From Candidatus Parcubacteria bacterium (GTDB taxonomy: Bacteria > Patescibacteriota > Minisyncoccia > Phycocordibacterales > UBA918), in NCBI GenBank assembly GCA_039799085.1, contig JBDLTL010000001.1, forward strand, positions 1 to 57,645: a stretch of DNA of 57,645 nt, read 5' to 3'. The notes under the pieces were generated by a model. It saw nothing but the letters and a program-made list of their open reading frames with translations, did not search any database and was not told where the DNA came from. This document shows positions 1-56,393 of this stretch, one piece after another. Both the position numbers and the translations under genes were made by a program. The stretch's first letter is position 1, and each line of letters starts with the position of its first letter.

Positions 1-174
1 CTGATGGCGGTGGGAGGCCTTAACTGGCTTCTTGTCGGCGTCGCAGACCTAGACTTGGTCGCCTCACTCTTCGGAGCTGGTTCTACCCTTGCCAAGGTCG
101 TCTACATTGTGGTCGGTCTCGCAACTGTAGCTGAGATTCTGACACACAAAAAGTCTTGCACGATGTGTAAGTAG
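1..174 (+). CDS. DUF378-like small membrane protein (5' end cut by window edge)
   Basis: Frame 1 is open from nt 1 to TAG at 172-174. Translation ..GGLNWLLVGVADLDLVASLFGAGSTLAKVVYIVVGLATV.. fits the LNW..VG...DLV..LFG pattern I recall for DUF378. A hairpin terminator follows. Confidence 0.6.
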   Translation: MMAVGGLNWLLVGVADLDLVASLFGAGSTLAKVVYIVVGLATVAEILTHKKSCTMCK

Positions 175-187
175 CTTACAGAGAACG

Positions 188-219
188 AAAAATCCACTTC
201 TCAAGGAAGTGGATTTTTC
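188..219 (+). terminator. Rho-independent terminator
   Basis: aaaaatccacttc / loop tcaag / gaagtggattttt, a 13-bp stem ending in a T-run, immediately after the stop at 174. Confidence 0.8.
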
Positions 220-222
220 GTT

Positions 223-245
223 TGGCGGAAGTGACAGGATTCGAA
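223..245 (-). pseudogene. Orphan tRNA 3' fragment (T-loop, T-stem 3' strand, acceptor 3' strand, discriminator G, encoded CCA)
   Basis: Minus strand reads TTCGAAT-CCTGT-CACTTCC-G-CCA. No T-stem 5' strand (ACAGG) lies upstream. CACTTCC is the exact complement of GGAAGTG in the orphan 5' fragment at 547-572. Confidence 0.6.
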
Positions 246-256
246 ACTTACAGTTT

Positions 257-293
257 CAGTACAAGCTGTCGATATTATTACTTCCTTATGGTC
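257..293 (-). repeat. Family-B short repeat, degenerate or shortened copy (B4)
   Basis: Minus strand GACCATAAGGAAGTAATAATATCGACAGCTTGTACTG shares GACC.., AAGGA(G/A)G, TCGAC and (A/C)(G/T)CTTGT(A/G).TG blocks with B1-B3. It lies 11 nt upstream of the orphan T-loop fragment. Confidence 0.4.
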
Positions 294-313
294 GTAAAAT
301 ATCTGACAACCTT

Positions 314-340
314 CTGAAATATTCTCCCAGAATATTTCAG
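314..340. repeat. Perfect 12-bp hairpin (ctgaaatattct-ccc-agaatatttcag)
   Basis: Exact inverted repeat with a 3-nt loop in non-coding DNA. No flanking T-run, so it is not an obvious terminator. Confidence 0.7.
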
Positions 341-369
341 CCTGCGTGAGCTTTCACCCAACACGCGCT

Positions 370-426
370 GACCAATTTTTAGGGAGACCTTAAGTCGACC
401 ATAAAAATGGAAATGCTCTTGTGGTG
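370..426 (+). repeat. Family-B short repeat, copy B2 (57 nt)
   Basis: GACCAATTTTTAGGGAGACCTTAAGTCGACCATAAAAATGGAAATGCTCTTGTGGTG. The last 26 nt match B3 at 24/26 and B1 at 21/26 by hand alignment. Confidence 0.7.
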
Positions 427-432
427 CAAGCG

Positions 433-546
433 TTAAAATTCTTAGCGGAGAGAAGAGGATTCGAACCTCCGATACGATTACTCGTATACATCCTTTCCAA
501 GGATGCGCATTCAACCACTCTGCCATCTCTCCGCTAAAAATTTTAA
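433..546. repeat. 14-nt inverted repeat (433-446 / 533-546, 13/14 complementary) bracketing tRNA-Ser(GGA)
   Basis: ttaaaattcttagc versus the reverse complement of gctaaaaattttaa (ttaaaatttttagc). It is contiguous with the 7-bp acceptor stem, giving a potential 21-bp helix. Confidence 0.75.
446..532 (-). tRNA. tRNA-Ser(GGA)
   Basis: Minus strand GGAGAGA-TG-GCAGAGTGGTTGAATGC-G-CATCC-TTGGAAA-GGATG-long variable arm (ATACGA gtaa TCGTAT)-GGAGG-TTCGAAT-CCTCT-TCTCTCC-G. No encoded CCA. Confidence 0.9.
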
Positions 547-572
547 GCCTTCAACCGCTCGGCCACACTTCC
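547..572 (-). pseudogene. Orphan tRNA-Ser-type 5' fragment (acceptor 5' strand plus D-arm only)
   Basis: Minus strand GGAAGTG-TG-GCCGAGCGGTTGAAGGC is a typical class II (Ser/Leu) D-arm. It runs straight into the inverted repeat flanking tRNA-Ser(GGA), with no anticodon arm. Confidence 0.6.
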
Positions 573-586
573 TTTAAAATCATCGG

Positions 587-731
587 CGGAAAGGGCGGGA
601 TTTGCACCACAAGAGTATTTCCGAAATTATAGTCGATACAAGCTCTCCTTAATTTCTAGGTCAACCCGCGATAGAGTTTCCCCTATGCCGGTTTTCGAAA
701 CCGGTGCTTTCAACCACTCAGCCACCTTTCC
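587..731 (-). tRNA. tRNA-Ser(CGA) interrupted by a 58-nt insert in the T-loop (87 nt without the insert)
   Basis: GGAAAGG-TG-GCTGAGTGGTTGAAAGC-A-CCGGT-TTCGAAA-ACCGG-variable arm-GCGGG-TT-[58 nt]-CAAAT-CCCGC-CCTTTCC-G. All stems are perfect once 605-662 is removed. Confidence 0.75.
605..662 (-). mobile_element. Family-B element copy B1 (58 nt) inserted between T-loop positions 55 and 56 of tRNA-Ser(CGA)
   Basis: Minus strand GACCTAGAAATTAAGGAGAGCTTGTATCGACTATAATTTCGGAAATACTCTTGTGGTG. Homologous to 370-426 and 54902-54955. No target duplication at the junctions. Confidence 0.65.
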
Positions 732-759
732 ATGAATGAGCGATTATTTATACCATATG

Positions 760-799
760 AAAGTGCGGTCAAAAATCTTTAGATTTTTGACCGCACTTT
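760..799 (-). terminator. Terminator hairpin downstream of the 802-1929 gene
   Basis: aaagtgcggtcaaaaatc / ttta / gatttttgaccgcacttt, an 18-bp perfect stem 2 nt after the stop codon. Confidence 0.8.
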
Positions 800-801
800 C
801 C

Positions 802-1929
802 CTAGCTCATCCGCACATCTTCAATGAGATGCAGGATATGGAGAATTGGTCGAGCAACAGTGAGCATGTAGTCCTTCACCTCCTCTTCGTCGATACTAGC
901 GACACTGTCGTGAATGCGCGTCTGTGCATCTGGATATAAGAGGTACATTTTCCCTTCGATAAATGAAATGCGAATGTTTCCCTTCTGCTGTTTCCACCAG
1001 TCATAGAGATCGCTCATGAAATTTGGTGTGAGAATGTACCGGGCCTCAATCTTGTCGGTCGTCATGACGTGTAGCAAGTCTTCAAACTCGGCCCACTCAA
1101 GCATGGTTTTTTCTGGAAGTGTTTCTTTTATAAGATTCCAAAAATCCACATGCCCAAAACCTGAGTCATCACCTTCTGTTGAGACAAATGTCTTAGCGTC
1201 GAGTGTGTGTGGGAGATCGTATGACACAAAGTACCCTTTGAAAATTCGCTTCACTTGGCGATTTTTCCCACTACCAGTGATATTTCTAATATCCATCTCA
1301 CCCGCAGAAAGTCGCCGACCGTCTAGTGAAAGGATTTCAAATAGATTGTCGACTTTGGTGGTGTTGAAAGGCTCAGTTATAAGCTCTGAATGGCGGAGTG
1401 TCTCAAGTAGTGCAATTGCCTCCGGTGAAGGTTCGACAAGCTGTCGGTACTTCTGAAATACTCGTTGCACCTTTCCCCACTTTGTATCTGGGTACACGCG
1501 CTCGTCAATTTTTGTCGTGTGCTCAATAAGCGAACCTTCGACGCCAAGAAGCGTAAAGATTTTTTTGAACATCACCTTATCAACCTGCCCATGAAAAGCC
1601 TTGATAACAAGAGCCCCCCTGGCAACCGTCATTACGCCAAAGTATGCAAAAACACCTATAGAAGCGAGGAAAATGAGCGTACCGATAATACCGCTCCAAG
1701 CGGAGACAGAAGTCGAGAGAATCGAACCGAACACAAAGAAAAAGATGTTTGGAATGATGAGAATCATGAAAAGAGACAGTGCCACGAGCCGTTGTTTGCG
1801 ACGGTATGAAACATACTGTACTTCTATATCACCCACCTTTTGTTTGATAGATTGCGTAGTTACAGGCAAATCAGACAGCAAGACAGTCTCGAGGGCTGAT
1901 TCGTTTGGAATGCGTGATTTGAGCTCCAT
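802..1929 (-). CDS. Membrane protein, DUF3137-like (LemA/HtpX neighbourhood)
   Basis: 375-aa ORF with two central TM helices. The domain assignment is from memory of the LemA-DUF3137 gene pairing and is not verified. Confidence 0.6.
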   Translation of the reverse strand: MELKSRIPNESALETVLLSDLPVTTQSIKQKVGDIEVQYVSYRRKQRLVALSLFMILIIPNIFFFVFGSILSTSVSAWSGIIGTLIFLASIGVFAYFGVMTVARGALVIKAFHGQVDKVMFKKIFTLLGVEGSLIEHTTKIDERVYPDTKWGKVQRVFQKYRQLVEPSPEAIALLETLRHSELITEPFNTTKVDNLFEILSLDGRRLSAGEMDIRNITGSGKNRQVKRIFKGYFVSYDLPHTLDAKTFVSTEGDDSGFGHVDFWNLIKETLPEKTMLEWAEFEDLLHVMTTDKIEARYILTPNFMSDLYDWWKQQKGNIRISFIEGKMYLLYPDAQTRIHDSVASIDEEEVKDYMLTVARPILHILHLIEDVRMS

Positions 1930-1938
1930 ACGCCACTG

Positions 1939-2838
1939 TTATACATCCATATTCCGAAGAATGCGAATGCGGTCTTCTGCTGGTGGGTGAGTCTGGAAAA
2001 GACCGCTGATTTTTTGACGAAGTGAACGTGAGTCACCGCCAAATGGATCAGCAATAAAAAGATGGGCGGTTGCATTGTTGGCACGAGCCATTGGGACTGC
2101 GTGTGCGTGGATTTTTTCGAGCGCTGAAGCGAGACCTTCTGGGTAACGAGTGAGGAGGGCGCCGCTTGCGTCCGCGAGATACTCACGCTTCCGAGATATC
2201 GCCATTTGAATAAGCTGAGCCGCAATTGGTGCCAAAATAATCCCGACGATACCAAGAATCAAAAAGATAACTCCAGCTTTGTTGTCTTCCCTATCACCAC
2301 CAAACATCATCGCACGCATAAAAAAATCAGCAAGAATAGCAACAAAGCCAGCGAGTACAACAGCAACTGTCGACACGAGCATATCGCGATTTCCAATATG
2401 AGAAAGTTCGTGTGCCATCACCCCTTCAAGCTCAGTTTGATTCAAGATAGCAAGTAGTCCTGTGGTGGCCGCTACTGCAGCGTGCTCAGGATCACGCCCG
2501 GTTGCAAACGCATTTGGCGCCATGTCATTGACGACATACACCTTTGGCATTGGTAGCCCAGCGGTGATCGAGAGATTTTCAACGACATTCCAAAGCATTG
2601 GATGTGTGTCTCTGGTCACCGGCTGAGCACCAGTCATTTTGATGACTAACTTATCGGACCACCAGTAGCTACCGATATTCATTACAATCGCAAAGATAAC
2701 CGCGACATAAAGAACAATCGGGTCACCCAGCAAGTAGGCCGCCCCGTACCCAAGCCCAATAACGAGCACGAGAAAAACAGCCATGAGAAACCATGTCTTA
2801 CGAATATTAGCCCCCTGGTGTGTGTAGAGTGTTGCCAT
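1939..2838 (-). CDS. htpX: Zinc metalloprotease HtpX (M48)
   Basis: 299 aa with an N-terminal TM pair, a HELSHIGNRD zinc motif, and C-terminal FQTHPP..RI. Confidence 0.92.
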   Translation of the reverse strand: MATLYTHQGANIRKTWFLMAVFLVLVIGLGYGAAYLLGDPIVLYVAVIFAIVMNIGSYWWSDKLVIKMTGAQPVTRDTHPMLWNVVENLSITAGLPMPKVYVVNDMAPNAFATGRDPEHAAVAATTGLLAILNQTELEGVMAHELSHIGNRDMLVSTVAVVLAGFVAILADFFMRAMMFGGDREDNKAGVIFLILGIVGIILAPIAAQLIQMAISRKREYLADASGALLTRYPEGLASALEKIHAHAVPMARANNATAHLFIADPFGGDSRSLRQKISGLFQTHPPAEDRIRILRNMDV

Positions 2839-4812: not shown

Positions 4813-6462
4813 CTAATACATTCCTCCCATGCCACCCATACCCGACATGTCAGGCATGACAGACTTTCCTTCCTCTGGTTCATCAGCAATCGCTGCCTCT
4901 GTCGTGAGGAGAATCGCCGCAGCTGAGACTGCGTGCTGTACACCTGAGCGCTCCACCTTCACTGGGTCGATGATACCGGCCTTTATCATATCGTCTACCA
5001 TCTCACCCTTCGCAGCATCGTAGCCAGCATTACCACCAGCTTGCTTCACCTTCTCAACAATCACCGCACCATCGTGCTTACCGGTATTGTCCGCGATTTG
5101 CTTAAGTGGTACTTCAAGTGCCTTAAGCACAATATTGTATCCAATCATCTCTTCGCGTGAGAGCTCTTTGTTTTCGATATTCTTCTCCACGATTCCCGCA
5201 GCGCGAGCAAGTGATGTTCCGCCACCTGGCACAATACCTTCATCAATCGCTGCCTTCGTAGCGTTTACCGCATCTTCGATTTTAAGCTTGAGGTACTTCA
5301 TTTCAGTCTCAGTGGCGGCACCTACTCGAATGACAGCTACACCGCCAGTAAGCTTAGCGATACGCTCCTCGAGTTTTTCTTTATCAAACTTCGAAGATGT
5401 TCCTTCAAGCTGTGCTTTAAGTGCAATCACGCGCTCTTCGACAGCCGACTTTTCGCCAGCGCCACCAACAATAGTTGTCGTATCTTTGGTTGATACCACT
5501 CGGTCAGCATGTCCTAGTTGCGCAAGCTCAACTGTTTCGAGCTTGTAGCCAAGGTCGTCACTAATCACCTGTGCACCGGTTGTCACCGCGATATCGGTAA
5601 GCATTTCCTTCTTACGGTCACCATAGCCTGGAGCCTTGATAGCAAGCACTGAGAATCCGCCCTTGAGCTTATTAACCACAAAGGTCGTGAGGGCTTCACC
5701 TTCAACTTCGTCTGCAATAATTACTAGCTCCTTCTTACCTGACTGCGCGATTTTCTCGAGGAGTGGAAGGATCTCTTGTACTGACGAAATCTTCTTGTCA
5801 GTAATCAGAAGCTGGGCATTTTTGTACTCTGCTTCCATACGCTCCGGGTTGGTCACCATGTACGGCGACACGTAGCCCTTATCGAACTGCATGCCTTCGG
5901 TGAGCTCCGTTTCGATACCAAATGACTGTGATTCCTCTACTGTCACCACACCGTCCTTACCGACCTTGTCGATAGTCTCGGCAATCTTCTCACCAAGCTC
6001 AGCGTCTTCTGCAGAAATAGTCGCAACCTGCTTAATCTCTTCAACGGAAGAAATCTTGGTAGCCATCTCCTTGAGGGCATCTACCACATCCTTAGCAGCG
6101 TGCTCCATACCATTGCGCACCGCCATTGCGTTGATACCCATAGTCGTCTGACGGAGTCCTTCGTTTACAAGTGCCTGAGTAAGCACCGTCGCAGTAGTCG
6201 TACCATCTCCAGCTACTTCGTTGGTCTTGGTCGCTACTTCCTTGATGATTTCAGCGCCCATGTTCTCGAACTTATCTTTGAGGACAATTTCCTTTGCAAT
6301 CGAGACACCATCATTCGTAATAGTTGGACCACCAAAGCCCTTGTCGAGGATGACATTGCGACCACGCGGACCGAGTGTTACCTTCACAGCATTTGCGACC
6401 GTATCAACTCCTTTCTGCAGCTTCTTTTTTACTTCCTCTCCGTAAATTACTTGTTTTGCCAT
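4813..6462 (-). CDS. groL: Chaperonin GroEL
   Basis: 549 aa: [31 protein letters not shown]..., with a C-terminal [10 protein letters not shown] tail. Confidence 0.98.
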
Positions 6463-6476
6463 AAAAATCTCTACGA

Positions 6477-6797
6477 TTAGTTAGTAAATACACCCAAGAT
6501 GCTCGCTTCGTTTACAATGTAATATTCCTTTCCATCTACCTTCAGCTCATCATAGCCATACTTTGAAAAGACAACGTGGTCACCGACCTGTACATCAAGT
6601 GGAATACGATTTTCGCCATCTTCATCAAATTTTCCGGGACCGACAGCGAGCACCACTCCTTGTTCTGGTTTTTCTTTCTTGGCACTGTCAGGGATGATAA
6701 TTCCTGACGGTGACGCAGTTCCCTGCTCTTCATCTGTGAGCGGACGCACAATCACCTTATCGTTAAGCGGTCTGATTGGACTGTTTTGTTCTGACAT
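6477..6797 (-). CDS. groS: Co-chaperonin GroES
   Basis: 106 aa: IRPLNDKVIVRP...GIIIPDSAKEKP.QG.V.AVGPG, immediately upstream of groEL. Confidence 0.96.
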   Translation of the reverse strand: MSEQNSPIRPLNDKVIVRPLTDEEQGTASPSGIIIPDSAKKEKPEQGVVLAVGPGKFDEDGENRIPLDVQVGDHVVFSKYGYDELKVDGKEYYIVNEASILGVFTN

Positions 6798-40893: not shown

Positions 40894-40961
40894 TGTTTTT
40901 CCCCTTCAGGAATAATCTTCTATAAGGAGAATAGAATGAAAATAGGGTATTGTCAAATATA

Positions 40962-41113
40962 CTGCCCGACAGGGACTCGGTCACGAATCACTAAGTATAT
41001 TTGTTCACTACGTTCCAAATCTACTAAGTGTTCTCGACCCAGACTCGCCGACAAGCCCTCGCTACGCTCGTCTTGTATACCGGCTCCGTCTTTCGAGTCC
41101 CTGTCCGGCTAGC
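40962..41113 (-). repeat. Family-A repeat copy E1, bounded by a direct (40962-40979) and an inverted (41094-41113) copy of the tRNA-Gln 3' end
   Basis: ctgcccgacagggactcg is 17/18 identical to the tRNA end. cgagtccctgtccggctagc on the same strand is its near reverse complement. The core is homologous to E2, E3 and E4. Confidence 0.7.
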
Positions 41114-41122
41114 AACAGCAAA

Positions 41123-41234: not shown

Positions 41235-41372
41235 TTGATTGTGCATTTACCCGAATCGGATAATGGGAGGACGGGAGTCCTCCTGCCAAGCGAGCGAGGG
41301 TCGCGGAAATGTTTACATTTCCATGACCGAGCGAGTGCAGGCAGAAAGATTTGGACCTGTTCCAAATCTTGG
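41235..41372 (-). repeat. 138-nt hairpin-rich element (D) bounded by a perfect 21-bp direct repeat (41214-41234 / 41373-41393) of the tRNA-Gln 5' end
   Basis: cattagacgatcgggcaatat occurs twice. The interior has three clean hairpins (aagatttgg/ccaaatctt, ggaaatg/catttcc, ggaggac/gtcctcc). Confidence 0.7.
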
Positions 41373-41478
41373 CATTAGACGATCGGGCAATATGTTGGGG
41401 CGACATTGCGAAGCTTTGTCGCCCAGTGGCAGTATAGTGCCAGAAACTAGAAAACTTTCAAGTACTCCTCTCCCCTCC

Positions 41479-54685: not shown

Positions 54686-54802
54686 ATATAGAAAAATACC
54701 CAAGCGGTCCACCTCCAAAATTGGTAGCAAAATGCTCTTGCCGTCATTCTACCACAGACCGTATTCTCGCCCTGTTTATAACTTTGCTTACGATGGGAAA
54801 TT

Positions 54803-54972
54803 ATGGGACTTGGTCACAAGTCACTCCTTTCAGTCGTGCTCGCGACCCCACCTCGCCGACAAGCCCTCGCTTCGTTCGTCTTGTGTACCGGCTCCGGCTT
54901 TGACCTAATTTTCAAGGAGTGAAACGACTATGAAAATGGAAATGCTCTTGTAGTGCAAGTCCCATCTCCAAC
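54803..54972. mobile_element. Composite: T-arm fragment (54803-54812), family-A copy E3 (54813-54901), nested family-B copy B3 (54902-54955), inverted tRNA-Leu 3'-end copy (54956-54972)
   Basis: atgggacttg and caagtcccat(ctccaac) are inverted and match the T-arm/acceptor of tRNA-Leu(CAA) at 55021-55046. B3 sits precisely at the junction that is uninterrupted in copy E1 (41093/41094). Confidence 0.65.
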
Positions 54973-56280: not shown

Positions 56281-56383
56281 GGGAGCAAGGGCTTGTCGGC
56301 GAGCTGAGGTCGAGGGTACTTAGAAAAATATGAGCGAAACGAAATATTTTACCTAGTAGCTCGTGACTGAATCCTCGTGGGCC
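56281..56383 (+). repeat. Family-A repeat copy E4 (left-truncated) ending in a 15-nt direct repeat of the tRNA-Trp 3' end (56369-56383 = 56223-56237)
   Basis: gggcttgtcggcgag..ggtcgag..acttag....cgtgac is the reverse-complement orientation of the E1-E3 core. It is followed by gaatcctcgtgggcc. Confidence 0.7.
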
Positions 56384-56393
56384 AGCAAAAATA

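Follow-up and report, generated by a model that had tools for sequence, protein, structure and literature searches.

Intervening sequences in the anticodon loop of bacterial tRNA genes are known in the form of group I introns, which measure at least 200 nt, possess a catalytic core that can be detected with Rfam and are always inserted in the sense orientation. Of a different nature are the REP/REPIN and IS200/IS605-derived elements, single-strand hairpin elements of which the IS200/IS605 type is moved by HUH Y1 transposases. To our knowledge, split and multi-intron tRNA genes, like the bulge-helix-bulge (BHB) endonuclease, have not been found outside Archaea and some eukaryotes. In the archaeal genes all the nucleotides of the mature tRNA are kept, the junctions have the BHB form, an archaeal splicing endonuclease is needed, and the disrupted gene is the sole gene for its tRNA. 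Multiple-intron, split and tri-split genes have been described in Nanoarchaeum equitans, Caldivirga maquilingensis and the Thermoproteales (reviewed in PMC4033280).

The locus described here belongs to a stretch of 57,645 nt from a Candidatus Parcubacteria bacterium (the window), whose neighbourhood and protein homologs are those of Paceibacteria/Parcubacteria (CPR) and in which a scan of 20 ORFs gave bacterial housekeeping genes. The original prediction held that a tRNA-Ser gene is split into two pieces, at 572-547 and 245-223 of the minus strand, with another tRNA between them. Both pieces (GGAAGTGTGGCCGAGCGGTTGAAGGC and TTCGAATCCTGTCACTTCCGCCA, respectively) do occupy these positions, and their acceptor strands, GGAAGTG and CACTTCC, pair at 7 of 7 positions. 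The gene is indeed broken, but into four colinear pieces rather than two, and only 6 nt of it are missing. Very probably, positions 223-572 (minus strand) represent a pseudogene of a type-2 tRNA-Ser(GGA), the four segments of which have been separated by three insertions at the DNA level.

This reading is based on a comparison with relatives, whose loci are designated here by L numbers. Their gene order is LemA, M48 peptidase, DUF3137 and then one tRNA-Ser(GGA), which in L001, L002, L018, L020, L045 and L046 is of type 1 (acceptor GGAGAGA); L003 has the type-1 gene and an added CGA tRNA. In L021 the position directly after DUF3137 is occupied by an intact type-2 tRNA-Ser(GGA) (acceptor GGAAGTG; L021:2813-2898), followed by a terminator-like hairpin equivalent to the one found in the window. 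This gene is the uninterrupted ortholog of the broken one. DUF378 lies downstream of the locus both in the window and in L045.

When the intact 86-nt gene of L021 is compared with the window by short-word blastn, four colinear matches on the same strand cover 80 nt, 79 of which are identical; a global MAFFT alignment paired the L021 tRNA with the intact type-1 gene, and the short-word search was needed instead. The first segment (547-572, minus strand; nt 1-26) comprises the acceptor 5' strand and the D arm, and agrees with L021:2813-2838 at 26 of 26 positions (E = 1.7e-11). The second (427-433, minus strand; nt 29-35) is ACGCTTG, that is, the anticodon-stem 5' strand ACGC followed by TTG, the last base of which is the first base of the anticodon; its match (7/7) is colinear with L021 and, taken alone, not significant. 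The third (341-366, minus strand; nt 40-65; 25/26, E = 4e-9) reads GCGTG-TTGGGTGAAAGCTCAC-GCAGG and provides the anticodon-stem 3' strand, the variable arm and the T-stem 5' strand. The fourth (223-245, minus strand; nt 66-86 and an encoded CCA; 21/21 over 245-225, E = 1.6e-8) holds the T-loop, the T-stem 3' strand, the acceptor 3' strand and the discriminator. Reported earlier as missing, the anticodon arm, the variable arm and the 5' strand of the T-stem are present at 433-427 and 366-341, colinear with L021.

Six nucleotides of the type-2 gene have been lost or replaced: nt 27-28 are missing, and GC stands in place of GAAA (nt 36-39). After exact removal of the element that it contains, the anticodon loop reads TTGGC where the intact gene has TTGGAAA; anticodon bases 35-36, two out of three, are gone, together with positions 37-38. 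ARAGORN, the kind of standard detector that might have found a continuous gene, does not call the broken one; it calls a tRNA once the three insertions are taken out, and tRNA-Ser(gga) once the 6 nt are restored from L021. In the predicted fold of the 350-nt stretch, the acceptor, D and T stems of the host are kept and each insertion forms a self-contained domain. Judging by the L021 ortholog, the broken gene is a second tRNA-Ser(GGA) and not one of the isoacceptors (UGA or GCU) for which a search had been proposed. The 20-mer of its 3' piece occurs at 13 loci in species-representative genomes of unrelated taxa, all of them tRNA-Ser genes that begin with GGAAGTG (12 are called by ARAGORN, and the thirteenth, L013, also reads as tRNA-Ser); their anticodons are GGA, CGA and TGA, so that the isoacceptor cannot be identified from that piece. 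A pattern search of species-representative genomes for an intact gene with both end pieces gave 0 hits.

Upstream of the tRNA cluster there is a putative promoter (743-772, minus strand; 10/12 in a consensus scan), formed by a -35 box TTGACC and an extended -10 box TGGTATAAAT at 746-755; the latter also precedes the first tRNA in L001, L003, L020 and L045. The tRNA-Ser(CGA) of the cluster (587-731, minus strand; Rfam tRNA 43 bits) carries a 58-nt B element in its T-loop, at 605-662, between T55 and C56, and its Rfam alignment shows 63 nt where 5 loop positions belong. ARAGORN misses this gene as it stands and calls tRNA-Ser(cga) after removal of B in silico; the uninterrupted ortholog is found at L003:5992-6080. 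The cluster is closed by a terminator-like hairpin (184-222, minus strand; inverted repeat I4), read directly from the sequence, with a perfect 17-bp stem, a preceding A tract and a trailing T tract, for which a strict terminator scan gave no call.

The first insertion (434-546, minus strand; 113 nt) follows the D arm (26/27), sits exactly between nt 26 and nt 29 of the type-2 gene, and is made up of a 14-nt leader, a complete tRNA and a 13-nt trailer. This tRNA is a complete type-1 tRNA-Ser(GGA) at 445-532, with acceptor GGAGAGA (ARAGORN; Rfam 58.9 bits); the original prediction was right to place an intact tRNA-Ser(GGA) between the two pieces, but the gene is itself one of the three insertions. 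The leader is an inverted repeat of the trailer, and the ends of the insertion pair with each other in a 13-bp extension of the acceptor stem of the nested tRNA; in the predicted fold (-49 kcal/mol, z -8.1), a 20-bp helix closes the cloverleaf. In L003, the type-1 unit is a homolog of this insertion, leader and trailer included, with compensatory changes in the helix. Given that the ends of the insertion coincide with those of its own leader/trailer helix, and that the L003 leader begins at approximately the expected transcription start, an entry mediated by RNA or by a hairpin is possible.

The second insertion (367-426, minus strand) lies in the anticodon loop and consists of a B element at 369-426, in forward sense on the plus strand, and GC at 367-368 replacing GAAA. 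The B-family copy claimed between the two pieces is confirmed here by pattern match, by the inverted repeat that it forms with the B of tRNA-Ser(CGA) and by covariance model R1 (73.6 bits). B elements have a length of about 57-58 nt; there are 3 copies in the window, and 14 distinct copies in 19 metagenome stretches. Their stem sequence is variable, the hairpin structure and the flanking motifs are conserved, and double compensatory changes are observed at 11 of the 17 predicted pairs (17 copies). B is in sense orientation in tRNA-Ser(CGA) and antisense in the broken tRNA-Ser(GGA); its presence in both orientations relative to the host tRNAs implies that it entered as DNA. The empty site in L003 (GGGTT/CAAAT) indicates that the insertion in tRNA-Ser(CGA) was exact, with target duplication absent. 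TTG precedes the reversed B in all three window copies, and CAA follows one of the three copies found by the covariance model alone, the motif having been built into the pattern for the other metagenome matches; a possible preference of B for TT^CAA is based on two sites with known empty sites.

Several identities were considered for this element and its companions. B was rejected as a classical MITE derived from a DDE transposase, having a single internal hairpin, no terminal inverted repeats and no target duplication, and the second insertion was rejected as a group I intron, being of 58 nt and antisense, and positions 150-850 giving no match to Intron_gpI at E <= 5. A scan of 20 window ORFs revealed no HUH (Y1) transposase or RAYT. 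Viral contigs contain no real copy of B; the single pattern match (L049, on the same contig as L025) lacks a B-type 5' end, is apparently coding sequence and represents a chance hit. Rfam, searched both at the gathering threshold and at E <= 5, yielded nothing but tRNAs and noise for the B, H and T modules.

The third insertion (246-340, minus strand; 95 nt) separates G53 from T54 and is composed of an H hairpin (314-340) followed by a T2 core (246-313). The former, correctly described in the original prediction as a perfect 12-bp hairpin, has CTGGGAG at its centre and belongs to a family of 9 distinct members in which the structure is kept through compensatory changes. The T2 core is identical to that of L027 at 47 of 64 positions (z 8.4) and to that of L040 at 46 of 62 (z 7.7), both of which are located directly upstream of tRNA 3'-end copies; this assignment is better than the "degenerate copy B4" previously proposed, the insertion not being a B copy because the B covariance model gives only a partial hairpin match of 12 bits. 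The empty site in L021 (GCAGG/TTCGAAT) again points to an exact insertion with target duplication absent. As for the mini tRNA-like fold proposed for 223-285, it is reproducible (-15 kcal/mol, z -3.0), but its GGAAGT and GACAG arms lie within the much stronger hairpin of the third insertion (-31.9 kcal/mol, z -6.1). We regard this predicted fold as incidental, its GGAAGT/ACTTCC helix being part of the inserted module rather than a remnant of the tRNA.

Small hairpin modules and pieces of tRNA are common companions of tRNA genes in this lineage, and copies of tRNA ends are also found elsewhere in it. A direct copy of the last 16 nt of the tRNA is present within 600 nt downstream of 12 of the 31 tRNAs in Paceibacteria loci (4 of 10 if only the window and unselected relatives are taken) and of 2 of 33 in unrelated genomes, both of them neighbours in one dense tRNA array. 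These copies begin in the T-loop, 80-330 nt downstream of intact tRNAs (most of them at 130-200 nt), and are sometimes in tandem; the sequence between tRNA and copy, of about 100-200 nt, is non-coding and highly structured. The resulting T elements have the layout inverted tRNA 3'-end copy, core, direct copy. In the window, tRNA-Gln has a 5' copy at 41371-41389 and a 3' copy at 40961-40979, and similar fragment copies follow tRNA-Trp and tRNA-Leu. The predicted fold of the tRNA-Gln element is a three-way junction (-70.9 kcal/mol, z -6.9) whose closing stem copies the 3' end of the tRNA. T core sequences are conserved between different metagenomes, and T-type elements vary between close relatives, being absent from L001 and present in L002. 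The T-core pattern had no hit in viral contigs, and no integrase or recombinase near tRNAs was detected among the 20 window ORFs scanned. Two origins were discarded: a target-duplication model, given that a native, non-conserved terminator intervenes between tRNA and element, and tRNA-primed reverse transcription, given that the 3' copies match the gene sequence and not the CCA-ended mature tRNA.

According to the explanation that we favour, the type-2 gene would formerly have been an uninterrupted one flanked by the DUF3137 gene and, in convergent orientation, the DUF378 gene, as in L021. A complete type-1 tRNA-Ser(GGA) with complementary leader and trailer would have entered after the D arm (26/27); a B element, which is a dispersed hairpin repeat of Paceibacteria, would have entered the anticodon loop, and a module of H hairpin and T2 core the junction between T-stem and T-loop (53/54). 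Small deletions at two junctions would have removed nt 27-28 and shrunk the anticodon loop, and the nested type-1 gene would supply the tRNA-Ser(GGA) function. The order of the insertion events is one that we infer, as is the nature of the insertions as mobile or recombination-prone hairpin modules with a preference for tRNA-gene loops, a preference possibly due to the exposure of loops in single-stranded DNA. Wreckage by repeated element insertion was also the reading preferred in the original prediction, and it is upheld by the four segments colinear with L021 and by insertions that have copies elsewhere.

A very different view is that the gene is a functional disrupted tRNA, with insertions that are removed as introns or via RNase P/RNase Z and exons that are ligated, as in archaeal multi-intron, split and tri-split tRNAs. 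All three insertions (26/27, anticodon loop, 53/54) lie at loops or junctions, positions at which archaeal introns are likewise spread among tRNAs (PMC4033280); the 3' piece carries an encoded CCA, and the self-contained folds of the insertions and the host stems retained in the model of 223-572 would suit such a gene. However, the spliced product would have TTGGC and not TTGGAAA, and would lack two anticodon bases, positions 37-38 and nt 27-28; since the anticodon bases and nt 27-28 were lost in DNA, no RNA joining could restore function. In addition, B is antisense here and sense in tRNA-Ser(CGA), and is thus not a strand-specific RNA element, an intact tRNA-Ser with the same anticodon is present inside the wreck, and the host is a bacterium, all of which leaves this view with hardly any credibility. 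The RNA-joined split of the Nanoarchaeum type, mentioned originally as an unlikely alternative, fails on the same grounds (deleted anticodon-loop nucleotides, intact GGA gene inside, B in both orientations, bacterial host), and an RNA-joined split or permuted gene is excluded as far as sequence can exclude it. We consider it highly improbable that the 5' and 3' pieces are att-like duplicates of intact tRNA-Ser ends elsewhere, left by integrative elements, even if flanking tRNA fragments are common in the lineage (the tRNA-Gln, tRNA-Trp and tRNA-Leu copies) and the third insertion belongs to a module family that normally precedes 3' copies. The segments at 433-427 and 366-341 supply the middle of the gene in the correct order and match the L021 ortholog at the same locus, the 3' piece does not reproduce the 3' end of the intact tRNA next to it (CCTGTCACTTCC vs CCTCTTCTCTCC), and it does not form with the adjacent type-1 gene the direct repeat of an att duplication (CCTGTCACTTCCG vs CCTCTTCTCTCCG); besides, integrase is absent among the 20 scanned window ORFs, and B and the tested T-core pattern are absent from viral contigs.

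In relatives, one locus is occupied either by type 1 or by type 2, and strain variants of both could have been merged by assembly into a chimeric contig; the contigs of L018, L019, L020 and L047 break off at or within this tRNA, which shows that assemblers struggle at this repeat-rich spot. Such an artefact is very unlikely, since a chimera would be expected to switch once at a shared k-mer and not to nest, while none of the six junctions falls within sequence common to both tRNA types, the leader/trailer helix of the type-1 unit marks the limits of that unit, the type-2 segments follow one another in colinear order without overlap, and neither the second nor the third insertion is tRNA sequence. 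It is also unlikely, if less so, that a functional tRNA-like RNA is made from 223-340 or from the stretch as a whole; such an RNA would imitate the top half of a tRNA (acceptor and T arm), with its T-loop expanded and its CCA encoded, and would be akin to the T elements. The strong folding of the latter (see the tRNA-Gln copy, above), the many compensatory changes that maintain the B and H hairpins, the conservation of T cores across metagenomes and the possible folding of 223-285 as a CCA-ended mini-helix could be understood in this way; conserved hairpins, however, are equally expected of DNA elements mobilised in single-stranded form, close relatives differ in whether they have an element (L002 has one, L001 does not), the mini-helix competes with the far more stable fold of the third insertion, and the modules match no Rfam family. 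Even if true, this interpretation leaves the broken tRNA-Ser non-functional.

Returning to the pseudogene with three insertions, a broader and frankly tentative proposal, which we hold to be possible but not the probable case, is that B, H and the T cores are undescribed Paceibacteria module families homing to tRNA-gene loops, that broken tRNAs are repeatedly replaced by a fresh nested or adjacent copy, and that T elements are late stages of this process or functional top-half mimic RNAs. If modules do home to tRNA loops, the broken tRNA-Ser would be an early stage in which all the host segments are still visible. The inserted families appear to be undescribed; a full-text literature search found no description of B-, H- or T-type elements, which is not proof of novelty. 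Within 350 nt, the locus shows small hairpin modules inserting at tRNA-gene loops in a reduced CPR genome, and a complete tRNA gene able to reside within the remains of its predecessor; the debris at tRNA-Gln, tRNA-Leu and tRNA-Trp and at related metagenome tRNAs points to an ongoing, element-driven turnover of tRNA genes. For annotation, ARAGORN misses both the broken gene and the B-interrupted tRNA-Ser(CGA), and the former should be marked as a pseudogene. Regarding split tRNAs, the locus offers no evidence for Nanoarchaeum-like genes in bacteria.

Compared with the systems described at the outset, the locus shares with archaeal split and multi-intron tRNAs the division into up to three or four pieces, the non-canonical positions and the similar intervening sequences across tRNAs, but here nucleotides have been lost, the host is bacterial, an intact copy is present and B is antisense. 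As in bacterial tRNAs with group I introns, an intervening sequence occupies the anticodon loop; unlike these introns, it is a 58-nt antisense hairpin without an Rfam match. Direct repeats of tRNA 3' ends downstream of intact tRNAs in the lineage recall the attL/attR of tRNA-targeting integrative elements, but the T elements are non-coding and contain an inverted tRNA-end copy, with no integrase or phage link found, and the 3' piece of the broken tRNA-Ser, in contrast to att repeats, belongs to the broken gene and not to the adjacent intact tRNA. By analogy, B may be likened to REP and IS200/IS605 elements in its conserved hairpin with variable stem, exact insertion and lack of target duplication, and perhaps in the adjoining short motif of the three window copies; it differs from them in having one hairpin rather than two subterminal ones and a target motif that varies in diverged copies. 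In bacterial tRNA pseudogenes with small-repeat or IS/MITE insertions, likewise, a once-intact gene has been cut by members of repeat families, a relative retains the uninterrupted ortholog and another copy provides the function. Unlike IS/MITE, the modules inserted here are devoid of terminal inverted repeats and left no target duplication at the two known empty sites; and, unlike in those pseudogenes, a single gene of 86 nt has taken up three insertions, all of them at loops or junctions of the cloverleaf and one of them an entire tRNA gene that has the same anticodon.

The second tRNA-Ser(GGA) of the window (223-572, minus strand) has been broken up by insertions and is a pseudogene. Its two ends, a 5' piece at 572-547 (GGAAGTGTGGCCGAGCGGTTGAAGGC, minus strand) formed by the acceptor 5' strand and a class II D arm, and a 3' piece at 245-223 (TTCGAATCCTGTCACTTCCGCCA, minus strand), had been recognized in the original prediction, and both are real, with acceptor strands that pair at 7/7. 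A 20-mer of the 3' piece occurs at 13 loci in species-representative genomes, twelve of which are tRNA-Ser genes called by ARAGORN, while the thirteenth (L013), not called by this program, reads as tRNA-Ser too. Given that all 13 are tRNA-Ser-like and start with GGAAGTG, the end pieces are genuine tRNA-Ser sequence and their complementarity is not a matter of chance.

The complete form of this gene is found in L021, a locus from a relative, where it reads GGAAGTGTGGCCGAGCGGTTGAAGGC-GCACGCTTGGAAAGCGTG-TTGAGTGAAAGCTCAC-GCAGG-TTCGAAT-CCTGT-CACTTCC-GC. Used as the query in a short-word blastn search of window positions 1-1000, it matched the minus strand in four colinear segments: nt 1-26 at 572-547 (26/26, E 1.7e-11), nt 29-35 at 433-427 (7/7, not significant alone), nt 40-65 at 366-341 (25/26, E 4e-9) and nt 66-86 at 245-225 (21/21, E 1.6e-8). 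The anticodon stem, the variable arm and the T-stem 5' strand, which had been reported as missing, are therefore present, as segments colinear with the L021 gene, and the broken gene lacks only nt 27-28 (GC) and nt 36-39 (GAAA, here GC). The interruptions, at the 26/27 junction, in the anticodon loop and at the 53/54 junction, are three unrelated self-folding sequences; two of the junction pairs are exact, and a net loss of 2 nt is seen at each of two. With the three insertions removed in silico, ARAGORN calls a tRNA of undeterminable anticodon, and when the six missing nucleotides are also restored it calls tRNA-Ser(gga). The broken gene is shown to have been intact in an ancestor.

The surrounding sequence is a bacterial chromosome segment, with genes for GroEL, RNase J, TopA, RelA/SpoT, SerRS and ParB. 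Directly upstream of the tRNAs lies a DUF3137 gene (802-1929), whose homologs are labelled Paceibacteria/Parcubacteria (closest full-length homolog, 76% identity), and the gene order LemA, M48 peptidase, DUF3137, tRNA is common to relatives; a convergent DUF378 gene follows the tRNA in L045 and L046, and the same gene is found at the window start. Relatives carry a single tRNA-Ser(GGA) at this locus, either type 1, with acceptor GGAGAGA (L001, L002, L018, L020, L045, L046 and L003, where an uninterrupted tRNA-Ser(CGA) follows), or type 2, with acceptor GGAAGTG (L021). The contigs of L018, L019, L020 and L047 stop at or inside the tRNA-Ser after DUF3137, and such contig ends suggest repeats or strain heterogeneity at the locus in natural populations. 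In the window, all the pieces are on one strand, bracketed by a promoter-like site (743-772) and a terminator-like hairpin (184-222). ARAGORN calls one tRNA at the locus, the tRNA-Ser(GGA) at 445-532 that had been placed between the end pieces; Rfam adds a tRNA-Ser(CGA) at 587-731 with its T-loop replaced by 63 nt.

The first insertion (ins1, 546-434, minus strand, 113 nt), located after the D arm, consists of a complete type-1 tRNA-Ser(GGA) with a 14-nt leader (TTAAAATTTTTAGC, 533-546) and a 13-nt trailer (GCTAAGAATTTTA, 434-446), inverted repeats on the minus strand that pair with each other and lengthen the acceptor stem to roughly 20 bp. The insertion is predicted to fold into a cloverleaf with a 20-bp closing helix (-49 kcal/mol, z -8.1). 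The type-1 unit of L003 includes the leader and trailer (5875-5888 and 5976-5990), three positions of the helix having changed on both sides with pairing kept, and its homology to ins1 stops exactly at the helix ends; L001, L002 and L045 are without the helix. In L003 the leader starts about 7 nt past the -10 box, probably near the point at which transcription would begin. The helix may have a role in processing or form the ends of a movable cassette. With low confidence, it is proposed that the unit came in as a cassette, either bounded by a hairpin or derived from a transcript, or, alternatively, by illegitimate recombination with DNA of a relative. The order of events is equally tentative: the type-1 copy may have come first, making type 2 dispensable, or type 2 may have been hit first and the type-1 copy then selected as its replacement.

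The second insertion (ins2, 426-367, minus strand), which interrupts the anticodon loop (ACGC-TTG, B, GC-GCGTG), is a copy of the hairpin element B (369-426), reversed relative to the broken gene, together with GC. Of the other two copies in the window, one (605-662, 58 nt) is in the T-loop of tRNA-Ser(CGA), sense to its host, and one (54901-54955) adjoins tRNA-Leu. Since B has opposite orientations relative to its two host tRNAs, it entered as DNA and not as an RNA intron; its orientation also differs among tRNA fragments of other genomes (L023 vs L044). A pattern scan found B in 19 metagenome stretches, reducing to 14 distinct copies, and four further matches look like chance. The alignment of 17 copies shows two-sided compensatory changes in 11 of 17 hairpin pairs. 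Where the empty site is known, insertion is exact and without target duplication, as at GGGTT|CAAAT, the uninterrupted tRNA-Ser(CGA) site of L003. In the window, B lies exactly between T55 and C56 of an otherwise perfect tRNA-Ser(CGA) (587-731, minus strand), which is missed by ARAGORN and scores 43 bits with Rfam; this gene may be a very recent pseudogene, have a tolerated expanded T-loop, or have B removed from its RNA. A covariance model found three additional, more diverged copies, at L002:4991-5067 (plus strand, intergenic, with no tRNA nearby), L026:7329-7405 (minus) and L040:681-756 (minus), one of which sits inside a T-element core. Because of the tRNA-free copy in L002, and because CAA follows B in just one of these three, the preference is not a rule: B is a dispersed repeat preferring tRNA-like loops, not confined to tRNA genes.

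The third insertion (ins3, 340-246, minus strand, 95 nt) lies exactly between G53 and T54, its empty site being GCAGG|TTCGAAT in L021, and in isolation it forms two hairpins (-31.9 kcal/mol, z -6.1). The first (314-340) belongs to a family of stem-CTGGGAG-stem hairpins, called H, of 19-27 nt, with nine distinct members whose stems are all different; the others are at L027:334-354 and 984-1004, L032:6895-6915 and 6520-6540, L039:11353-11373, and L040:788-808, 1285-1305 and 2289-2307. Seven of the eight non-window copies of H belong to T elements: they lie in the inverted arm, flanked by the acceptor complement and the T-stem complement, where other tRNA arms would emerge. The remaining 68 nt of ins3, previously described as a degenerate B copy, match the B model weakly (12 bits) and show 47/64 identity to a T core of L027 (z 8.4 against shuffles) and 46/62 to one of L040 (z 7.7, likewise), both directly upstream of a direct tRNA 3'-end copy starting in the T-loop. 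The mini tRNA-like helix of the original prediction does fold (-15 kcal/mol, z -3.0); its GGAAGT and GACAG arms are inside the second hairpin of ins3, and the fold is probably incidental.

Such T elements, with the core ...AGGGCTTGTCGGCGAG...GGTCGAG...CGTGAC, follow tRNA-Gln, tRNA-Leu and tRNA-Trp in the window (T1 elements at 40961-41114, minus; 54796-54971, minus; 56283-56386, plus) and tRNA-Ser in relatives (L002:7285-7437 and L003:6090-6238). T1 elements run from an inverted, imperfect copy of the tRNA 3' end through the core to a direct copy of that end from about C56; all three in the window close with such a direct copy of their own tRNA, and those of tRNA-Gln and tRNA-Leu start with the inverted one. 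In T1 elements, the inverted arm corresponds to the direct arm rather than to the tRNA 5' strand. A three-way junction is predicted for the tRNA-Gln element (-70.9 kcal/mol, z -6.9). About 140 nt upstream of tRNA-Gln there is a 19-nt copy of the tRNA-Gln 5' end (41371-41389, minus), so that the intact gene stands between an old 5' and an old 3' fragment, as do tRNA-Leu(TAA) in L040, where a 5'-end copy lies at 2043-2065 (minus), and tRNA-Val(GAC) in L042 and L023. The 5'-end copies of tRNA-Gln and tRNA-Leu reach into or through the D arm, and the flanked tRNAs look like a fresh gene nested in an older one, the tRNA-Ser layout minus the middle part of the old gene. Two tandem T-type elements follow tRNA-Cys in L040 (2080-2440, minus), both closing with a direct copy of the tRNA-Cys 3' end; this suggests that one tRNA has accreted elements repeatedly. 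Counting matches to the last 16 nt of a tRNA with at most 2 mismatches within 600 nt downstream, 3'-end copies accompany 12 of 31 tRNAs in all Paceibacteria loci (4/10 in the window and unselected relatives, 8/21 in loci fetched through the B pattern) and 2 of 33 in unrelated genomes, where the two are neighbours within a single dense array of tRNAs. Viral contigs yielded neither B nor the tested T-core pattern, and no recombinase was found near the window tRNAs among the 20 ORFs scanned.

Two explanations had been offered for the scattered pieces: wreckage of a tRNA gene after element insertion, and a split gene of the Nanoarchaeum type joined at the RNA level. The former is borne out by the L021 match, the three insertions and the lost anticodon bases. 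A bacterial split tRNA was rejected, given that exact removal of B leaves the anticodon loop TTGGC, with two of the three anticodon bases deleted; this loss and that of nt 27-28 are deletions in the DNA, so RNA joining cannot restore a decoding tRNA. The broken gene is unable to decode, and an intact tRNA-Ser(GGA) sits within it. Split, tri-split and multi-intron tRNAs are found only in Archaea and a few eukaryotes, all of them need bulge-helix-bulge motifs and the splicing endonuclease, and the tRNA introns known from bacteria belong to group I (PMC4033280); no group I intron was detected at the locus with Rfam. In the predicted fold of 223-572, the acceptor, D and T stems of the host are kept and each insertion forms a separate domain, which is consistent with insertion at loops and leaves the anticodon unrescued.

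An insertion-wrecked tRNA pseudogene is an already known kind of thing. What is unusual here is how heavily the gene is fragmented (86 nt in four pieces), the nesting of a complete tRNA with the same anticodon inside the broken one, and the membership of the inserted modules in structured families associated with tRNA loops, families that have no record in Rfam and no description in the literature searched. It is possible, with low confidence, that the broken tRNA-Ser is an early form of a structure that would develop into a T element. B, H and the T cores are proposed, with moderate confidence, to be mobile or recombination-prone hairpin modules, and with the same confidence to enter without target duplication, favouring tRNA-gene loops, which would become accessible in a gene folded as single-stranded DNA. 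This inferred insertion behaviour resembles that of REP or IS200/IS605-type elements.
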